Part shown: one piece after another, positions 4,794-24,279 of the stretch
Layout: each line of letters begins with the position of its first letter
Position numbering within the stretch: position 1 is the first letter of the stretch
NCBI GenBank assembly: GCA_030624695.1
Contig: JAUXJP010000001.1
Span: forward strand, 1 to 26,189
DNA length: 26,189 bases
Direction: 5' to 3'
DNA from: Candidatus Dadabacteria bacterium
GTDB taxonomy: Bacteria; Desulfobacterota_D; UBA1144; Nemesobacterales; JAJCZQ01
The notes under the pieces: generated by a model
Told to the model about the DNA's origin: nothing
Seen by the model: only the letters and a program-made list of their open reading frames with translations
Database searches by the model: none
Made by a program: the position numbers and the translations under genes

Positions 4794-5670
4794 CTAGCTT
4801 TTTATTGTAATTGTCGATGATTTCTGATAATTCCTGAATGCCTTTGATAATATGATGCGATACAGTTGTTAAATGGCTTGTTTCGATTGTATAAACATTG
4901 CTGTTTGTTATTGCTTTAAGTTGTCCTAAAACTTTATCTGACCTTAGTGTTTCTATAAAATTTTCTTCATCTGGAGAATAACTTCCAATTATTATTATTT
5001 CAGGGTCTGCGTTTAGAATATATTCCCGTGAAATTTTTTTATTTCCATCTATTCCCGCCTTTGCCCCAACATTTACTCCACCAGCCAAAGTTATAAGGTC
5101 ATCAATCGTGGTATTAATACCAGCTGTGAAAAATGATGGGAATAAATAGAGCACTGTAGGGTTATATGATAATTCTCTTTTCTTAAGTTCTTCAATACTT
5201 TTATTCAGACTGTTAATGAGTGAAGTAGCTTTATCTTCTTCACAGACTGCTTTGCCGAGTAATATAATATTTTGATTTATGCTGTCTATGGAATTTAATT
5301 TGGTAAGAAAATGTGTATTTATCCCAGTTTTTGTAATTTGGTCTATAAAAGCATAATCTATGTAGTCCGCAACTATTAGCAAGTCGGGATTTATATCAAT
5401 TATCTGCTCCAGGTTAGGGAGCAGTTTATGTGGTATACCCGATGTTCTTCCATGAATATTAGATAACTTTTTATTGTCTGCGAGGTAGGTAATGCCGATA
5501 ATTTTGTCGTTTTCTACAATATCAAGAAGTATTTCATCTGAAGCAAGGCTTAATGATGCAATCTTTTTCGGGCATACTGTTTTGACATTAGTTTTGTCAG
5601 CTGTATTCTCCTTGCAAGCGTTTGCAAACATGAGTGAAATTAATATCAGTAGTAATATTTTTACTTTCAT
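4765..5670 (-). CDS. Periplasmic substrate-binding lipoprotein (BtuF/FecB-like, Peripla_BP_2 type)
   Basis: Lipoprotein signal LILISLMFANA-C, IASLSLASDEIL, EQIIDINPDLLI, LITLAGG.N and ADPEIII. It overlaps the permease start in an operon. Substrate not determinable. Confidence 0.88.
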   Translation of the reverse strand: MKVKILLLILISLMFANACKENTADKTNVKTVCPKKIASLSLASDEILLDIVENDKIIGITYLADNKKLSNIHGRTSGIPHKLLPNLEQIIDINPDLLIVADYIDYAFIDQITKTGINTHFLTKLNSIDSINQNIILLGKAVCEEDKATSLINSLNKSIEELKKRELSYNPTVLYLFPSFFTAGINTTIDDLITLAGGVNVGAKAGIDGNKKISREYILNADPEIIIIGSYSPDEENFIETLRSDKVLGQLKAITNSNVYTIETSHLTTVSHHIIKGIQELSEIIDNYNKKLDENKTKTSN

Positions 5671-5725: not shown

Positions 5726-6802
5726 ATGTATAAATCAATAATACGACCGGTTCTTGATAAGCTTGATTCTGAAACGTGGCACAATATAGTCCGTGAGGGA
5801 ATGCATATAACCGAAACTTCGGTTGCTTCACTAAAACTGCTGGAATTTTTAGCCTGCAGCGGCAATAGGTTAGTTGATGAAAAATTAAATGTAAACCTTT
5901 CCGGTATCAAACTTGAAAATCCCTTGCTGATAGGTGCCGGATGGGATAAGTCCGGAAGGGCAGTAAAGGCGCTGTACTCCATAGGATTTGCAGGTGTCGA
6001 AATCGGATCTGTCTTGGAATACCCCCAGCCGGGCAATCCACAGCCAAGGCAGTTTATGCTGAATCCCGGTGTCTGCCTTAATTGGCTTGGATTTAATAGC
6101 CCCGGGATGAAGACTGTTGGCTACTATCTAAGCCGATATAAAAATTCAGAAATTCCACTTGGTATCAGCCTCGGAATTAATAAGTATATTGAACCAAAAG
6201 ATGCCCCCTTTGCGAACGCTGTTGTTGCAGAATACCTGGATGATGATGCCTCTTATTTTGCCATAAATGTAAGTTCTCCTAATACTCCCGGGCTAAGAAA
6301 ATTACAGGATAAGGATAACTTAATTGATATAGTTCAGGCTGTTTCTGAAGTTACTGAAAAACCAGTATTTGTAAAAATTGCACCAGACCTTACAAATCAG
6401 GCAGTTGATGATGTAATAAAAGTTGTCATTGATCATGGCCTGGCAGGAATAATTGCCACTAATTCGACAAACAACCCGAGTATCAAAGCAAAGTACGGGA
6501 ATGAATGGGAAAAACAGGATGGTGGTGTAAGCGGAGATGACGGCGATTTCAGAATGATATCCACCATAAAAATAGAACATATATATAAGCAGGTTGGAGA
6601 TAAGATTGATATAATCGGGGTCGGGGGGATAAAAGATACAGAGACTGCGCTTGAAAAGATAAGGGCTGGTGCAAAGGTACTGCAGATTGTTACGGGACTC
6701 AGGTGAGAAGGCCCTTCAATTGCCTATAAAATTAATTACGGTCTTGTGAAGTATATGATGGACGAGGGTGTTAATAATATTTCAGAACTGATAGGTTCCT
6801 AG
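5726..6802 (+). CDS. pyrD: Class 2 (quinone-dependent) dihydroorotate dehydrogenase with an in-frame TGA at 6704-6706; conserved C-terminus continues to TAG at 6800-6802
   Basis: ENPLLIGAGWDK, GFAGVEIGSV, QPGNPQPR, catalytic NVSSPNTPGLR, KIAPDL, GGVSG and IIGVGGI. The ORF track stops at 6706, but the same frame continues EGPSIAYKINYGLVKYMMDEGVNNISELIGS*. It may be a pseudogene, a sequencing error or read-through. Confidence 0.9.
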
Positions 6803-7977
6803 GTCCTGTATTCTGAATTGATTGTAACATATTCATGAGACAGGTCACTGGTAATTACATAGGAACTGGCGTTTCCTTCTTTTAGTTTAATTGTCACAGT
6901 AAATTTTGATTTTTTAAATACCGGTGCAAACTTGGACTCTGCCTGAAACTGGGCACCGCTCTTAATAACCCTTTTATCATCAAAAAACATCTCTACCTTG
7001 TCAGGATTAAACATAACCCCGGCCCTTCCGGCAGCGGCAAGTATACGGCCCCAGTTAGGGTCTTCGCCAAAAAATGCGGTTTTCACAAGCAGGGAATTTC
7101 CGACTGTCCTTGCAATTTTTTCAGCTTCTTTTACTGTCCTTGCACCCTGGACATCAATTTTGACAACTTTTGTGGCTCCTTCACCGTCCTTTACAATTAA
7201 TTCTGCAATTTCGGTATTAAGCTCAGTCAATATTTTCTCAAACCGTGAGTAGTGGCTGCTTTTTAAAGTTATTTCATTGTTGTCGAGTACACCATTTGAA
7301 AGCATAATGACGGAATCATTTGTAGAGGTGTCTCCGTCGACAATAATTTTATTAAATGAATTGTCAACAGAATTAACCAGTGCCTTCTTAAGTGTAGTCT
7401 TATTAATATTAATATCAGTAATTATAAAGCAGAGCATGGTTGCCATGTTTGGGCATATCATACCGGCGCCTTTTCCAATCGCAGCAATGGTTCCCTCTTT
7501 TTTCCCAATCTTTATTTTCCTGAAAGCAAATTTTGGAAACTTGTCAGTTGTCATTATTGCTTTAGCTACTTCTTCAACACCACCCGGGCCAAGTTTGGAT
7601 ATAAGGTTTGGAATAGCTCTTCTTATCCTGGATACAGGTAATGGGCCGCCTATTAATCCGGTGGATGATGGAATTATTAAATTTTCTTCTATACCAAGTG
7701 AAGCTGAAATATCTTTGGTTGTCTGAACTGCATTCTGATAACCACTTGTTCCTGTAAATGCATTAGCAATGCCGCTGTTAATAACAATAGCCTGGCATAA
7801 ACCCAGTTTGATTCGTTCCTGCCCAAGAATTACGGGTGCGGCTTTAACTACGTTGGTTGTATATACAGCAGCAGCTTTTGCAGGGACATCGGAAAATATC
7901 AGAGCGAGGTCTTTTTTCCCGTTTTTTTTCACTCCCGATGAAACACTGCTTAGCTGAAAACCTGGTATTGAGATCAT
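6799..7977 (-). CDS. argJ: Ornithine acetyltransferase / N-acetylglutamate synthase ArgJ
   Basis: AAAVYTTN, INSGIANAFTG, SSTGLIG, AIMTTD, KGAGMICPNMATML (autocleavage), DGDTSTND, KDGEGATK, GEDPNWGRI, and the end YVTINSEYRT. Confidence 0.97.
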   Translation of the reverse strand: MISIPGFQLSSVSSGVKKNGKKDLALIFSDVPAKAAAVYTTNVVKAAPVILGQERIKLGLCQAIVINSGIANAFTGTSGYQNAVQTTKDISASLGIEENLIIPSSTGLIGGPLPVSRIRRAIPNLISKLGPGGVEEVAKAIMTTDKFPKFAFRKIKIGKKEGTIAAIGKGAGMICPNMATMLCFIITDININKTTLKKALVNSVDNSFNKIIVDGDTSTNDSVIMLSNGVLDNNEITLKSSHYSRFEKILTELNTEIAELIVKDGEGATKVVKIDVQGARTVKEAEKIARTVGNSLLVKTAFFGEDPNWGRILAAAGRAGVMFNPDKVEMFFDDKRVIKSGAQFQAESKFAPVFKKSKFTVTIKLKEGNASSYVITSDLSHEYVTINSEYRT

Positions 7978-8663
7978 AGTTTCAATTCCTCTAGAAATTT
8001 CGATGATTTAAATTCTGTTTCCGTCTGAATTTCAAGATATTTTGTTAGTGCTTTAATGTTATCTGATACTTTGCCCAGAAAAATATCCATATATTCTTCA
8101 TTTTTAATAATATCTAAATGAAATTTGTGGAATTTCTCTCCTTTCTTATTTTCTGATAGGCCATATACATTACCATTTGTAATATCGAATTTCACTTCTT
8201 TTGAATTAATTTCTTCGAAATTTGGCTGTATCCCATTTATCCTGAGTAAAGTTAGCTGATAATTTAGAAGGGTGGGTAAAATGTTTTCTTTTTTATCAAT
8301 CTGATCAAATATATTTATTGTTGCATCAAATAATTCTTCACTCTTTTCATTTTCATATGTAAAAAGGTCAACATGCTCAAGTACAAAACTGCCAAATGCA
8401 AAAGTTTCGAGGCTCTCGGTTATTGAGGGAAAAGGTTTTATAAGGCTTACATCATTTACAACATTAAATTTGTTTTCATTTAAAGTGATGTCGAGCTTTA
8501 GGTGGATAAAAGGTTCGAGCCTTCCGCCAAATCTTTTTTTGCTTTTTTTAGCCTGCCTTGCTATTCCTTTAACTTTGCCAATCTCTCTTGTAAACAAAGT
8601 TACAAGATAGTCGGCTTCTCCGTAAACGGATTTTTTTATTACAATTGAATTAAGATTTTCCAT
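7974..8663 (-). CDS. recO: DNA repair protein RecO
   Basis: YGEADYLVTLFTREIGKVKGIARQAKKSKKRFGGRLEPF OB-fold N-terminus. No Cys4 Zn finger in the C-terminal half. ATGA overlap with argJ. Confidence 0.9.
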   Translation of the reverse strand: MENLNSIVIKKSVYGEADYLVTLFTREIGKVKGIARQAKKSKKRFGGRLEPFIHLKLDITLNENKFNVVNDVSLIKPFPSITESLETFAFGSFVLEHVDLFTYENEKSEELFDATINIFDQIDKKENILPTLLNYQLTLLRINGIQPNFEEINSKEVKFDITNGNVYGLSENKKGEKFHKFHLDIIKNEEYMDIFLGKVSDNIKALTKYLEIQTETEFKSSKFLEELKL

Positions 8664-14845: not shown

Positions 14846-15024
14846 ATGAAAGCCAGAAAAATTGTATTAATTCCCGGGGATGGAATAGGCCCTGAAATCT
14901 GCGAAGCGACAAAGAACGTATTGTCTGCAGTATGGGTGAAACTACACAAGACCTTGATGGAAACCTCAATACCCCCGATTTCGTGAGGGTACTGGTCCAG
15001 CATATACTTAAAATAAAATTCTGA
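14846..15024 (+). pseudogene. Internally deleted remnant of an isocitrate/isopropylmalate dehydrogenase-family gene
   Basis: ATG 14846 gives MKARKIVLIPGDGIGPEICEATKNVLSAV, the family N-terminal signature, with a stop at 14984-14986. A different frame from 14935 reads GETTQDLDGNLNTPDFVRVLVQHILKIKF* (stop 15022-15024), resembling the family C-terminal T.DLGG...T.EF motif. Confidence 0.8.
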
Positions 15025-15459: not shown

Positions 15460-18204
15460 TTAATTTAAATGCTTTTTCAAATATTGGGCTGTATGGGAAT
15501 TTTTTGATTTAAGTATCTCCAAAGGAGTTCCCTCGGCAACTATATTGCCTCCGTTTTCACCCCCATCGGGGCCAAGGTCGATAATATAATCTGCTGATTT
15601 AATCACATCAAGGTTGTGTTCAATAACTATCAGGGTGTTTCCATTGTCTACAAGCTTGTTTAGCACATATAGGAGTTTATTTATATCCTCACTGTGCAGG
15701 CCTACGGTAGGTTCGTCCAGTATGTAAAGTACACCGCTTGCTGTTTTGCGTGATAGTTCCCTTGCGATCTTTATTCTCTGGGCTTCACCCCCGGAAAGTG
15801 TAAGTGCAGATTGACCAAGCCTTAGATAGCCAAGGCCTACGTCCTGCAGGATTTTTAACATCCTTACTATCTTATGATGTTCGAAAAAAAATATTACCGC
15901 ATTATCTACAGTAAGGTTTAATATTTCGTCAATGTTTTTACCATTATACTTATAGCCAAGTATATCTTTCTTAAATCTTTTACCGTTGCATTCCTCACAA
16001 GTAACGATTACATCTGCAAGAAAAAGCATTTCTATCTTTTGTCTACCCTCACCCTGGCAGCTCTCACAGCGTCCGTTTTTAACATTAAAAGAAAAGTGTG
16101 AAGGAGTAAATCCTTTTAGTTTTGCCCGCATGGGAGAGGAAATAACTTTTCTTATTTCATCATATACTTTTATATAGGTTACGGGATTTGATCTTCCCGA
16201 CCTTCCAATAGGAGACTGATCAATGAGAATAATGTCCGATATAAAGTTGTCGCCTTTTATCTTATCTACCTTACCGGGTTTTTCCTTTTCACTTCTAAAT
16301 TTTCTAATCAGGTTTTTGTAAATTACATCGTTTACGAGTGAACTCTTTCCTGATCCGGATACACCTGTGACGCACGTAAATTTACCAATTGGTATAGAAG
16401 CATCGATGTTCTTTAGATTGTTTTCTTTTGCCCCTGATATGGTTAGATACTTACTTTTTCCATTTCTTAATCCTTTGTTTTGTTCTATATATTTTTCACC
16501 GGAAAGATATTGCCTGGTATAAGAATCTGTTTTAGATCTGATAAAATTTTTGACCCGGCCAATATATACTATTTCCCCTCCGTGTTCTCCTGCTTCAGGC
16601 CCGAGTTCTATAATATTGTCGGCAGCCATTACCATATCGTGATCATGTTCTACAACAAGGATTGTATTGTTACGGGATTTGAGTTCAAAAATAATTGATA
16701 TCAACTGGTTTATATCTTTTGGGTGAAGCCCTATAGAAGGTTCATCAAGTACGTAAAGTGTTTCAGTAAGTTTGGAACCCAGTTGGCAAGCGAGGTTGAC
16801 TCTTTGGCTTTCACCACCAGACAGTGTCCTGGAGAGCCTGGATAAAGTAAGGTAGCCAAGCCCCACTTTTATAAGGAATTCGGACCTGGAAAGTATTTCA
16901 TTTATAATATCTTCAGATATAGATTTGTCATATTCCGAGAGGTCCAGATTCATGAAAAAATCATAAAACCTGTATATGGTTATTTCAGAAAGTTCATGGA
17001 TATTTTTATTGTTTACCCTTATGAATAAGGACTGTTCTTTTAATCTGCTTCCATTACAAGATTCACATTTAACTGAGGACCTGTATCTGCTCAGGAAAAC
17101 CCTTACATGCATTTTGTAACTTTTTTTTTCAAGACGCTTGAAAAAACCGTTAACGCCCTTGTAGTTATTTTTACCATTAAATACAAGTTCTTTTTGTTTA
17201 TTGGTTAATTGACAGAATTTTTTGGAAGTATCAATGCTGTTTTCTTCCGCAAACTCTATAAGCCGCCTCATGTGTATTTTATAAGAAGGCTTGGTAAATG
17301 GTTCAATTGCTCCATTTTTTATGCTGAGTTCGGGATTTGGAATAACAAGTTCAGGGTCAATCTCCAGATTGTTTCCGAAACCATTACATTCGGGGCAGGC
17401 ACCCTGGGGACTGTTAAATGATAAAGATGCAGGTGTTGGTTTTACAAACTTAAAATTACAGTCTGTGCATTCAAAACCGTCTGTATAGTTGTAAATCTTG
17501 CCCTCTACAATGGTTACAAATAAACTATTTGATTCCTTAAAGGCAATTTCCAAAGCTTCAATCAACCTTGACCTGGAATCTGTATCAAGTAAGACCCTGT
17601 CAATAATTAGCTGGGCATTTACCGGAAATGAATCAATATCCTCAAGTTCAATGTAATCTGAATCCGCATAAGCCCTGCTAAAACCCTTTGCAAGATAGTT
17701 TGCCGGACTGAAACCTTCTTTTACCGGTACAGAGATTATACATTTTTTTCCGTTTTCGTTTTTATATGTTTTTTCTGCAATAATATCCGGTGTGTATTTT
17801 ACTATTTCTTTGCTGCATCCGGGGCAAAAGATCTTTCCTATTTTTGAAAATAGTACCCTCAGGTAGTCGTTAATTTCTGTTGTTGTCCCGACTGTGGAAC
17901 GGGAGTTTCTTATAGTGTTTTTACTTTCTATAGCTATTGCAGTTGGAAGGCCTTTAATATCGTCTACGTCCGGGCGGTCTACACGTTCAAGGAACTGTCT
18001 TGCATATGTTGAAAGACATTCAATGTACCGCCTTAGCCCCTCGGAGTAGACTGTGTCGAGTGCGAGTGATGATTTGCCCGAACCGCTAAGCCCGGTAACC
18101 ACGGTATATTCACCTCTTGGTATTTTTACATCAATATCCTTTAGGTTGTTTTCCCTTGCTCCGCTGACCTCTATGTATTCCTTTTTAATTGTTTTCGATG
18201 TCAT
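15460..18204 (-). CDS. uvrA: Excinuclease ABC subunit A (UvrA family, divergent copy)
   Basis: Two ABC ATPase modules (GARENNLK/TGLSGSGKSS and GAKENNLK/TGVSGSGKSS), LSGGESQR and LSGGEAQR, LDEPS/LDEPT, and Zn-binding CxxC pairs. Confidence 0.95.
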   Translation of the reverse strand: MTSKTIKKEYIEVSGARENNLKDIDVKIPRGEYTVVTGLSGSGKSSLALDTVYSEGLRRYIECLSTYARQFLERVDRPDVDDIKGLPTAIAIESKNTIRNSRSTVGTTTEINDYLRVLFSKIGKIFCPGCSKEIVKYTPDIIAEKTYKNENGKKCIISVPVKEGFSPANYLAKGFSRAYADSDYIELEDIDSFPVNAQLIIDRVLLDTDSRSRLIEALEIAFKESNSLFVTIVEGKIYNYTDGFECTDCNFKFVKPTPASLSFNSPQGACPECNGFGNNLEIDPELVIPNPELSIKNGAIEPFTKPSYKIHMRRLIEFAEENSIDTSKKFCQLTNKQKELVFNGKNNYKGVNGFFKRLEKKSYKMHVRVFLSRYRSSVKCESCNGSRLKEQSLFIRVNNKNIHELSEITIYRFYDFFMNLDLSEYDKSISEDIINEILSRSEFLIKVGLGYLTLSRLSRTLSGGESQRVNLACQLGSKLTETLYVLDEPSIGLHPKDINQLISIIFELKSRNNTILVVEHDHDMVMAADNIIELGPEAGEHGGEIVYIGRVKNFIRSKTDSYTRQYLSGEKYIEQNKGLRNGKSKYLTISGAKENNLKNIDASIPIGKFTCVTGVSGSGKSSLVNDVIYKNLIRKFRSEKEKPGKVDKIKGDNFISDIILIDQSPIGRSGRSNPVTYIKVYDEIRKVISSPMRAKLKGFTPSHFSFNVKNGRCESCQGEGRQKIEMLFLADVIVTCEECNGKRFKKDILGYKYNGKNIDEILNLTVDNAVIFFFEHHKIVRMLKILQDVGLGYLRLGQSALTLSGGEAQRIKIARELSRKTASGVLYILDEPTVGLHSEDINKLLYVLNKLVDNGNTLIVIEHNLDVIKSADYIIDLGPDGGENGGNIVAEGTPLEILKSKNSHTAQYLKKHLN

Positions 18205-18911
18205 GTCAGTTTGAAGAGTCCTGATAATTCTAAAAGATTACTAACCTGTATCACTTTAATTCCTTCATAATTAATTCCGTCTTTATGGTTTATCCAGATT
18301 GTATCTATTCCTGCATTCCTAGCACCCAAAATGTCGGCCCCATATAAATCGCCGATATGCAGTATATCCTTTGTATCAATGCCGAGCTTCTCTGATGCAA
18401 GTAAAAAAATATCTTTATCAGGTTTAATTATGTTTACATTTGTCGAATCGATTATTAGTTCAAAATATTTTGCGATCCCGAGTTGTTCACACTTCTCTGT
18501 TGTTTTTCCATCATTATTGGAAATCACTGCCAGTTTGAACCCGGATTTACTCAGATCTTTCAGGAGTTCTTCTGCACCGGGCAGGAGTTGTCTTTTATAT
18601 CCTGATTTAGCCATTTTACGGTTTATATGATTCCAGGCTTCCTCAGTTTCCATATTTATACCAAGTTCACGTAAAATAATTGAAATTATTTTTTTTTGAT
18701 AAATGGCAGATGAAATTATCTGATCATCAAAATACTCTTTGTAAATAATATAATCTGCATACTGAAATGCCCTGAAATACTGCTTTTCGGTAAACTCAAA
18801 ACTTATCTCACAAAGGGCTATTCTTATCCTGTCCGGGTATGTTGGAACTGTGGAAGCAATGGTATCTCCAAAATCGAAAAAGATTGCTTTTTTATTTTTA
18901 ATATCGATCAT
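18201..18911 (-). CDS. HAD-superfamily hydrolase, subfamily IA
   Basis: Motif I FFDFGDT, motif II ISNND, KP, and motif IV HIGD.YGADILGA. ATGA overlap with uvrA. Confidence 0.9.
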   Translation of the reverse strand: MIDIKNKKAIFFDFGDTIASTVPTYPDRIRIALCEISFEFTEKQYFRAFQYADYIIYKEYFDDQIISSAIYQKKIISIILRELGINMETEEAWNHINRKMAKSGYKRQLLPGAEELLKDLSKSGFKLAVISNNDGKTTEKCEQLGIAKYFELIIDSTNVNIIKPDKDIFLLASEKLGIDTKDILHIGDLYGADILGARNAGIDTIWINHKDGINYEGIKVIQVSNLLELSGLFKLT

Positions 18912-23446: not shown

Positions 23447-23803
23447 GTGTTGTCAGATTATTTACCGATTTTATTATTATTATTGTTCGCAATTTTCCTT
23501 GCCTCGTCACTGTTAACAATTTCTTTCCTGCTCGGCCCAAAAAGGCCCAAAGCAAGTAAATTGTCACCGTATGAGTCCGGGATTGTACCGGTCGGAGATG
23601 CAAGGGAAAAGTTTTCTATGAAGTATTATTTAATAGGAGCACTGTTTATCCTGTTTGATGTTGAAACTGCGTTTTTGTTTGTCTGGGCAGTTGTTTTTAA
23701 AGAGCTTGGGCTTTTTGCCTTTATAGAGATAGCTGTGTTCCTGATAGTGATACTTTGCGGATATTTTTATGTACTTAGAAAAGGAGTCCTCGAATGGGAA
23801 TAA
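23447..23803 (+). CDS. nuoA: NADH-quinone oxidoreductase subunit A
   Basis: Three TM helices, [23 protein letters not shown], and the end KGVLEWE. GTG start (or TTG at 23450). Confidence 0.96.
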
Positions 23804-24279
23804 ATGCAGCTCCCACAGCAGGTGGTGAAGGTTTTCTGACTACCACTGTAAACTCTGTTGCAAACTGGGGCAGAAAAAACAGCCTCTGGCCAATGCCATT
23901 TGGTACAGCTTGTTGTGCTATTGAAATGATGGGAGCGTTAGCTTCAAGGTTCGACCTATCAAGGTTTGGAGCAGAAGTTGCCAGGTTTTCGCCAAGGCAG
24001 GCCGACCTTATGATTGTCTCCGGGACTATTACTTACAAGATGGCTTCTGTATGCAGAAAAATATATGAACAGATGCCGGAGCCTAAATGGGTTATAGCAA
24101 TGGGATCCTGCACATGCGGTGGTGGCCCGTTTGACAGTTATGCAGTTGTGCAGGGTATTGATGAATTTTTGCCAGTCGATGTTTATATAGGAGGCTGTCC
24201 TCCAAGGCCTGAAGCACTTATTGATGCCGTAATTAAAATACAGAAAAAGATTGATATTGAAGGTGCACCGATTGTATGA
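23794..24279 (+). CDS. nuoB: NADH-quinone oxidoreductase subunit B
   Basis: [40 protein letters not shown] and [14 protein letters not shown]. Confidence 0.97.

Follow-up and report, generated by a model that had tools for sequence, protein, structure and literature searches.

The pyrD gene of an uncultured Candidatus Dadabacteria bacterium is interrupted by an in-frame UGA that results from a single G-to-T substitution, private to one metagenome-assembled genome (MAG) and accompanied in that MAG by three other nonsense codons in genes that are otherwise conserved. The UGA in pyrD is most likely not a special decoding signal, and UGA is an ordinary stop codon in this genome. The feature itself is ordinary, a lone point change that is probably an error, with no new decoding phenomenon behind it. 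As the source of the substitution in pyrD and of the other three stops, we lean, at somewhat better than even chances, towards oxidative damage of the 8-oxoguanine (8-oxoG) type or a consensus error at low coverage. The window, meaning the whole stretch of DNA that was analyzed, comprises 26,189 nucleotides (positions 1 to 26,189, forward strand, of contig JAUXJP010000001.1, assembly GCA_030624695.1), and coordinates given without a contig name refer to it.

The reading frame of pyrD (5726..6802, + strand), encoding a class 2 (quinone-dependent) dihydroorotate dehydrogenase (DHODH), starts with ATG at 5726, reaches TGA at 6704-6706 (codon 327), and continues to TAG at 6800-6802. The full frame has 358 codons plus the TAG, giving a read-through product of 358 amino acids and a truncated product of 326. 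In the 31-codon tail after the stop (6707..6799), the closing part of a short helix is followed by the last helix of the barrel (332-347) and by a turn at the C-terminus (352-355). The convergent argJ gene (6799..7977, - strand; ArgJ NF003802, 476.8 bits) overlaps the end of pyrD, with the CTAG at 6799-6802 common to the two stop codons, and the same overlap is found in the related metagenome contigs L021 and L022. An earlier sequence-only reading of this DNA had placed an in-frame UGA in pyrD 31 codons from the C-terminus, had taken the peptide downstream of it to be real protein sequence, and had pointed to the CTAG overlap with the argJ stop. The first and last of these hold as described, and the second is borne out by the profile and structure alignments that follow.

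The Pfam DHO_dh domain (PF01180) spans residues 54-344, across the stop (4.2e-68, 230 bits), and the NCBIfam model for quinone DHODHs, TIGR01036, covers residues 5-358 at 267.8 bits (cut-off 200), with NF003652 scoring 288.4 bits (cut-off 267). Alignment to solved class 2 DHODH structures reaches the last residue (E 4.5e-56 to 4xq6), the tail pairing with the C-termini of solved DHODHs. The active-site motif NVSSPNTPGLR, at residues 181-191, is invariant in 28 homologues. In class 2 DHODHs, the serine of the N-x-S-S-P-N-T motif is the catalytic base, a role filled by cysteine in class 1 enzymes, and PyrD has the serine in this motif. In the structural model of an intact homologue of 99% identity (mean pLDDT 90.1), helices 2-11, 15-29, and 33-44 lie ahead of the barrel, consistent with the N-terminal extension that forms the quinone site, and the C-terminal end consists of the last barrel strand (318-321), a short helix (324-328), the final barrel helix (332-347), and a turn (352-355). 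A class 2 enzyme would be expected to have an uninterrupted frame through the last barrel helix, and in the window the frame breaks off before it. Judging from the model, the stop at codon 327 would spare only three residues at the start of the short helix and remove the final barrel helix and the C-terminal turn, and the truncated PyrD would probably be inactive or unstable.

Comparison with relatives identifies the ancestral codon. A single G>T at 6704 turns GGA (Gly327) into TGA, an origin that had been among those named from the sequence alone: three metagenome contigs from three other samples (L021, L022, and L023; 97.7-99.35% identical to the window) have G at this base and read GGA. Over the 221 nt from 6590 to 6810 these contigs equal the window at every base except 6704, and 0 of the 93 nt after the stop differ. 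Over 14.9 kb, L021 and the window share 99.35% identity, with 97 natural differences; the count of 54 synonymous against 36 non-synonymous differences reflects purifying selection in the lineage. L124 and other relatives of at least 56% identity have a GGN glycine codon at position 327, and an intact 358-aa pyrD orthologue, its frame open and without a stop, was found in 38 of the 40 relatives searched. Across 28 homologues, as the sequence-only reading had proposed to align them, the residue at codon 327 is glycine in 25, serine in 3, and never cysteine. Homologues carry the NCBI names Thermodesulfobacteriota or Dadabacteria.

Protein records agree with this picture. The truncated 326-aa protein is on record from the window's contig only, all full-length forms among the 15 members listed of a 31-member 90% protein cluster have Gly327, and the intact protein P0127 (99% identical) is encoded on five contigs from JGI, ENA, and Logan samples. 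From these comparisons, the change at 6704 is private and either very recent or not biological at all. We considered whether broken copies of pyrD elsewhere might represent repeated loss of the gene and rejected this, as the lesions are unrelated: among other assemblies of the same species cluster, L023 has a 23-nt deletion in pyrD (L023:1630-1700), and L124 (GCA_003359175.1) has two single-base insertions (L124:3865-4090), one of them adjoining a G6 run.

We then took a census of internal stop codons in the MAG. From G002, a complete 1.99-Mb relative genome of the same family, 1586 ORFs were searched against the window's assembly (G000; 1.38 Mb in 265 contigs with a median length of 4.2 kb, 83% complete), where 966 of them matched and about 273,000 codons were aligned. 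The census extends to those genes that have an orthologue in G002, which make up about two thirds of the coding sequence, and leaves aside shadow ORFs, stops at alignment ends, and 5' over-extensions. Four internal stops remained, one TGA, one TAG, and two TAA, each of them within a real gene. Besides the TGA in pyrD (contig C1, the window, at 6704; ancestral GGA), these are a TAG at codon 102 of the RNase Y gene rny (C57:5445-5447, - strand; TIGR03319, 684 bits), where the 99.2%-identical contig L129 has the ancestral GAG; a TAA in an amino-acid ABC permease gene (C34:651-653, + strand), where all relatives of 96-97% identity have Glu and parsimony gives GAA; and a TAA in an SRPBCC-like gene that is also frameshifted (C69:5532-5534, - strand), where G001 and G003 have the ancestral GAA. 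The stops are not specific to TGA.

What the four stops share is the substitution: in 4/4, with the permease's ancestral codon deduced from the amino acid alone, the change is G>T at codon position 1. From the genome's codon usage, G>T is expected to account for 0.24 of stop-creating single changes if all changes are equally frequent and 0.18 if transitions are four times as frequent, and the probability of 4/4 by chance is about 0.001-0.003, a figure that rests on four events. The synonymous differences that set the window apart from L021 (n=54), as a sample of natural variation, consist of 34 transitions, 11 GC<>TA changes, and 9 AT<>TA changes. Since this spectrum is dominated by transitions, the four stops do not resemble a draw from the ordinary variation of the lineage. 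The stops imply a G>T rate of roughly 1.6e-4 per G:C site, at which less than one extra private G>T change is expected in 15 kb, against the 97 natural differences there. That pyrD shares its MAG with three more nonsense codons made by G>T goes beyond the sequence-only reading, and it points to one G>T-specific process that acted across the assembly, with a cause that lies in the assembly or the cell and not in pyrD.

Several other candidate stops were discarded. Those on contigs C216, C189, C185, C241, C122, C9, C140, and C76 lie in shadow ORFs, in low-complexity frames, or upstream of the true start. One TAA inside prfB was rejected as a fifth nonsense codon, as it arises when frame 0 is read ahead of the +1 frameshift site in that gene. 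The reverse baseline, with ORFs of G000 searched against G002, is rough only, returning mostly antisense shadow ORFs from short contigs and one or two real-looking cases. In G002, in-frame TAG codons are present on contig C1 at 624819 and 1914804; the corresponding residues in G000 are Leu, in a TPR-like protein, and Tyr. There is a low background of internal stops even in this closed genome.

Some of the contigs involved have peculiarities of their own. For contig C34, a search of the sister genome G001 gave no orthologue, and among named relatives its permease is closest to Desulfobacterales or Deltaproteobacteria MAGs. C34 may belong to a different organism that was binned together with this one (a binning contaminant), in which case a library-level cause would be favored, if anything. 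The SRPBCC-like gene (C69:5227-5675, - strand) has a frameshift near 5376-5379 in addition to its TAA and is possibly a true pseudogene. On contig C19 (4826-4893, - strand), a G-run has one G too many (ATGGGGTGAAAAAA; the relative reads M-G-E-K-I-E), which throws a gene out of frame. The tRNA clusters Lys(UUU)-Glu(UUC), Val(UAC)-Asp(GUC), and Thr(GGU) were each detected twice by ARAGORN, on different contigs of G000, which suggests strain redundancy in the bin (reported contamination 3.5%).

If the stops are errors, G>T changes would have entered during sequencing or assembly, by way of 8-oxoG-type damage or a low-coverage consensus. A private G>T at 6704 would have converted the GGA codon of Gly327 to TGA in an otherwise intact class 2 pyrD, and the organism itself would make a normal 358-aa PyrD. 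We infer such an artefact, and not a mutation in a living cell, because real stops would amount to four simultaneous knock-outs, among them the sole pyrD and RNase Y, none of which is seen in other assemblies, in a lineage under purifying selection. The fragmentation of the MAG into 265 contigs of 4.2 kb median length is compatible with low coverage or a damaged template. C>A/G>T artefacts that stem from 8-oxoG produced when libraries are sheared have been documented (PMC3616734), at a low percentage of reads and a low allele fraction. As the published artefacts are of low fraction, such a change would enter a consensus only if coverage was very low or a single template was damaged. Artefacts of this type show G>T in reads of one orientation and C>A in those of the other.

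The same base change could also have happened in the organism. A real nonsense mutation that arose very recently in the cell or population sampled is a serious possibility, though we rate it below an even chance. The change from GGA to TGA would cut off 32 residues including the last barrel helix, would probably leave PyrD dead or unstable and the cell auxotrophic for pyrimidines, a defect possibly softened by rare near-cognate read-through, and the G>T bias would reflect a weak defense against 8-oxoG in the lineage. The T at 6704 is present in the deposited sequence, but the allele is private to this one assembly and the tail behind it shows no further change. The G>T signature of 8-oxoguanine arises in living cells as well, and the genomes offer a reason why it might do so here. 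Equivalogs of MutY and Fpg (MutM) were not found in G000, G001, G002, G003, G005, or G009, and the absence extends to relatives that are 99% complete (the complete G002 and G005 included). The MutY model matched only HhH-GPD proteins, about 225 aa long, which score about 79 bits in relatives and 33 bits in G000. Going by these searches, the lineage may lack the usual 8-oxoG repair pair, and natural rates of G:C>T:A change would then be raised. Even so, transitions prevail among the natural synonymous differences and are absent from the four stops.

Gene decay of an undoubted kind lies near pyrD, and this too would agree with a real mutation. A remnant of an isocitrate/isopropylmalate dehydrogenase gene, after the radical-SAM gene, is found both in the window (14846-15024) and in L021 (18506-18950) and is real decay common to the lineage. 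It is further deleted in the window's genome, where 2 nt (14931-14932) stand against 268 nt in L021 (18591-18858). The combination of frameshift and stop in the SRPBCC-like gene is likewise often seen in true pseudogenes, and in-frame TAG codons occur in the complete genome G002 as well. For pyrD the argument from decay meets the cost of losing the gene: it is the sole DHO_dh match in G000, pyrB and pyrE are intact, and upp, for uracil salvage, was not found in this genome, which is 83% complete. RNase Y is struck in the same genome as pyrD. The boldest version of this explanation holds that all four stops are real, in a streamlined lineage without recognizable MutY or Fpg that suffers oxidative bursts of G>T change, with fresh knock-outs of pyrD and RNase Y survived through cross-fed pyrimidines or leaky read-through of UGA that yields a little full-length PyrD; we consider it unlikely.

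Explanations in which the UGA is translated by design fare much worse. One would have this single UGA recoded, by a near-cognate tRNA (for Trp, or for Gly as in code 25) or as selenocysteine, to yield full-length PyrD, and we consider this very improbable. The intact tail after the UGA counts in its favor, as does the leakiness of UGA, which is the leakiest stop codon in bacteria, and the Tyr found at the aligned position in distant class 2 enzymes suggests that Trp might be tolerated there. But no relative keeps the stop (0/38 other genomes), nor does any full-length cluster member listed, and the homologues have Gly, or Ser in 3/28, and never the Cys that would suggest a selenoprotein (Cys or Sec in 0/28). 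Selenocysteine machinery was sought, as the sequence-only reading had advised, in G000 at its 83% completeness: ARAGORN found 30 tRNAs and among them no tRNA-Sec or tRNA with a UCA anticodon, selA had no match, and the best match to the selB model reached 189 bits (cut-off 242) over the GTPase part only. That reading had also seen only weak hairpins after the UGA and no SECIS element. The folding results concur: the 81 nt around the UGA have a minimum free energy of -13.3 kcal/mol, whereas shuffled sequences average -15.0 (z +0.66), 147 of 200 shuffled sequences were at least as stable, no SECIS-like hairpin emerged, and Rfam gave no match in the region. As the 93 nt downstream are identical in the contigs that read GGA, no recoding signal has evolved there. 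The other three stops in the MAG, moreover, are TAG and TAA.

The three alternatives put forward in the sequence-only reading have thus fared unequally. Error and recent mutation are both live, whereas read-through fails, as no relative keeps the stop; the accumulation of substitutions in the tail, which the reading had held would speak against read-through, was not seen. Overall, programmed read-through or recoding of the pyrD UGA has at most a slim chance.

An alternative genetic code with UGA as a sense codon (table 4 or 25) is refuted by the RF2 frameshift site and by stop codon usage, and we give it practically no chance, even though the UGA replaces a Gly codon, as its code 25 meaning would have it. 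The prfB gene for RF2 is present in G000 (526 bits, above cut-off) with the canonical +1 frameshift site CTT-TGA-C (C215:5485-5491, - strand), which functions only with UGA as a stop. Of 539 conserved genes that align with a relative as far as the C-terminus, 334 end in TAA, 117 in TAG, and 88 in TGA, and within the window TGA ends recO (7974-8663), an 81-aa ORF, and the ORFs at 18201-18911 and 23794-24279. The pyrD codon is the only in-frame TGA in the approximately 273,000 aligned conserved codons, and the tRNAs for the amino acids in question are tRNA-Trp(CCA) and tRNA-Gly(CCC, UCC). Loss of RF2, disuse of TGA, numerous in-frame TGA codons, and a UCA tRNA, the marks of an altered code, were none of them seen in G000, and the statement in the sequence-only reading that UGA is a genuine stop elsewhere, with no genome-wide recoding, is upheld.

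The value of this case lies mainly in quality control. This in-frame UGA should not be read as a sign that the uncultured lineage recodes UGA, uses selenocysteine, or is auxotrophic for pyrimidines, and a metabolic reconstruction in which pyrD or rny counts as lost from this MAG would probably be wrong. The census offers a cheap test for other MAGs: a few internal stops that all belong to one substitution class and are all private, as with G>T here, indicate a process of the assembly or the cell, and not gene-specific biology.

Among known systems, pyrD most resembles the class 2 enzymes of M. tuberculosis (4xq6), human (1d3g), and E. coli (1f76), sharing with them the full-length alignment, a TIGR01036 score above cut-off, the active-site motif, and the N-terminal helices. 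It differs in the TGA at codon 327, which occurs in the window's assembly only; close relatives have Gly, and the M. tuberculosis enzyme has Tyr at the aligned position. With UGA recoding systems, namely bacterial selenoproteins and code 25 (UGA as Gly, used by Gracilibacteria and SR1), it has in common an in-frame UGA where homologues have Gly, but lacks their defining machinery or conservation. Like ordinary nonsense-mutation pseudogenes, it is an otherwise conserved gene with a premature stop made by a single base, though without secondary decay, unshared with related genomes, and alongside three stops of the same type. Compared with the 8-oxoG artefact of library shearing, which appears at low allele fraction, the change here stands in the consensus, and the likeness lies in the substitution class of all four stops in the MAG (Costello et al., 2013; PMC3616734).
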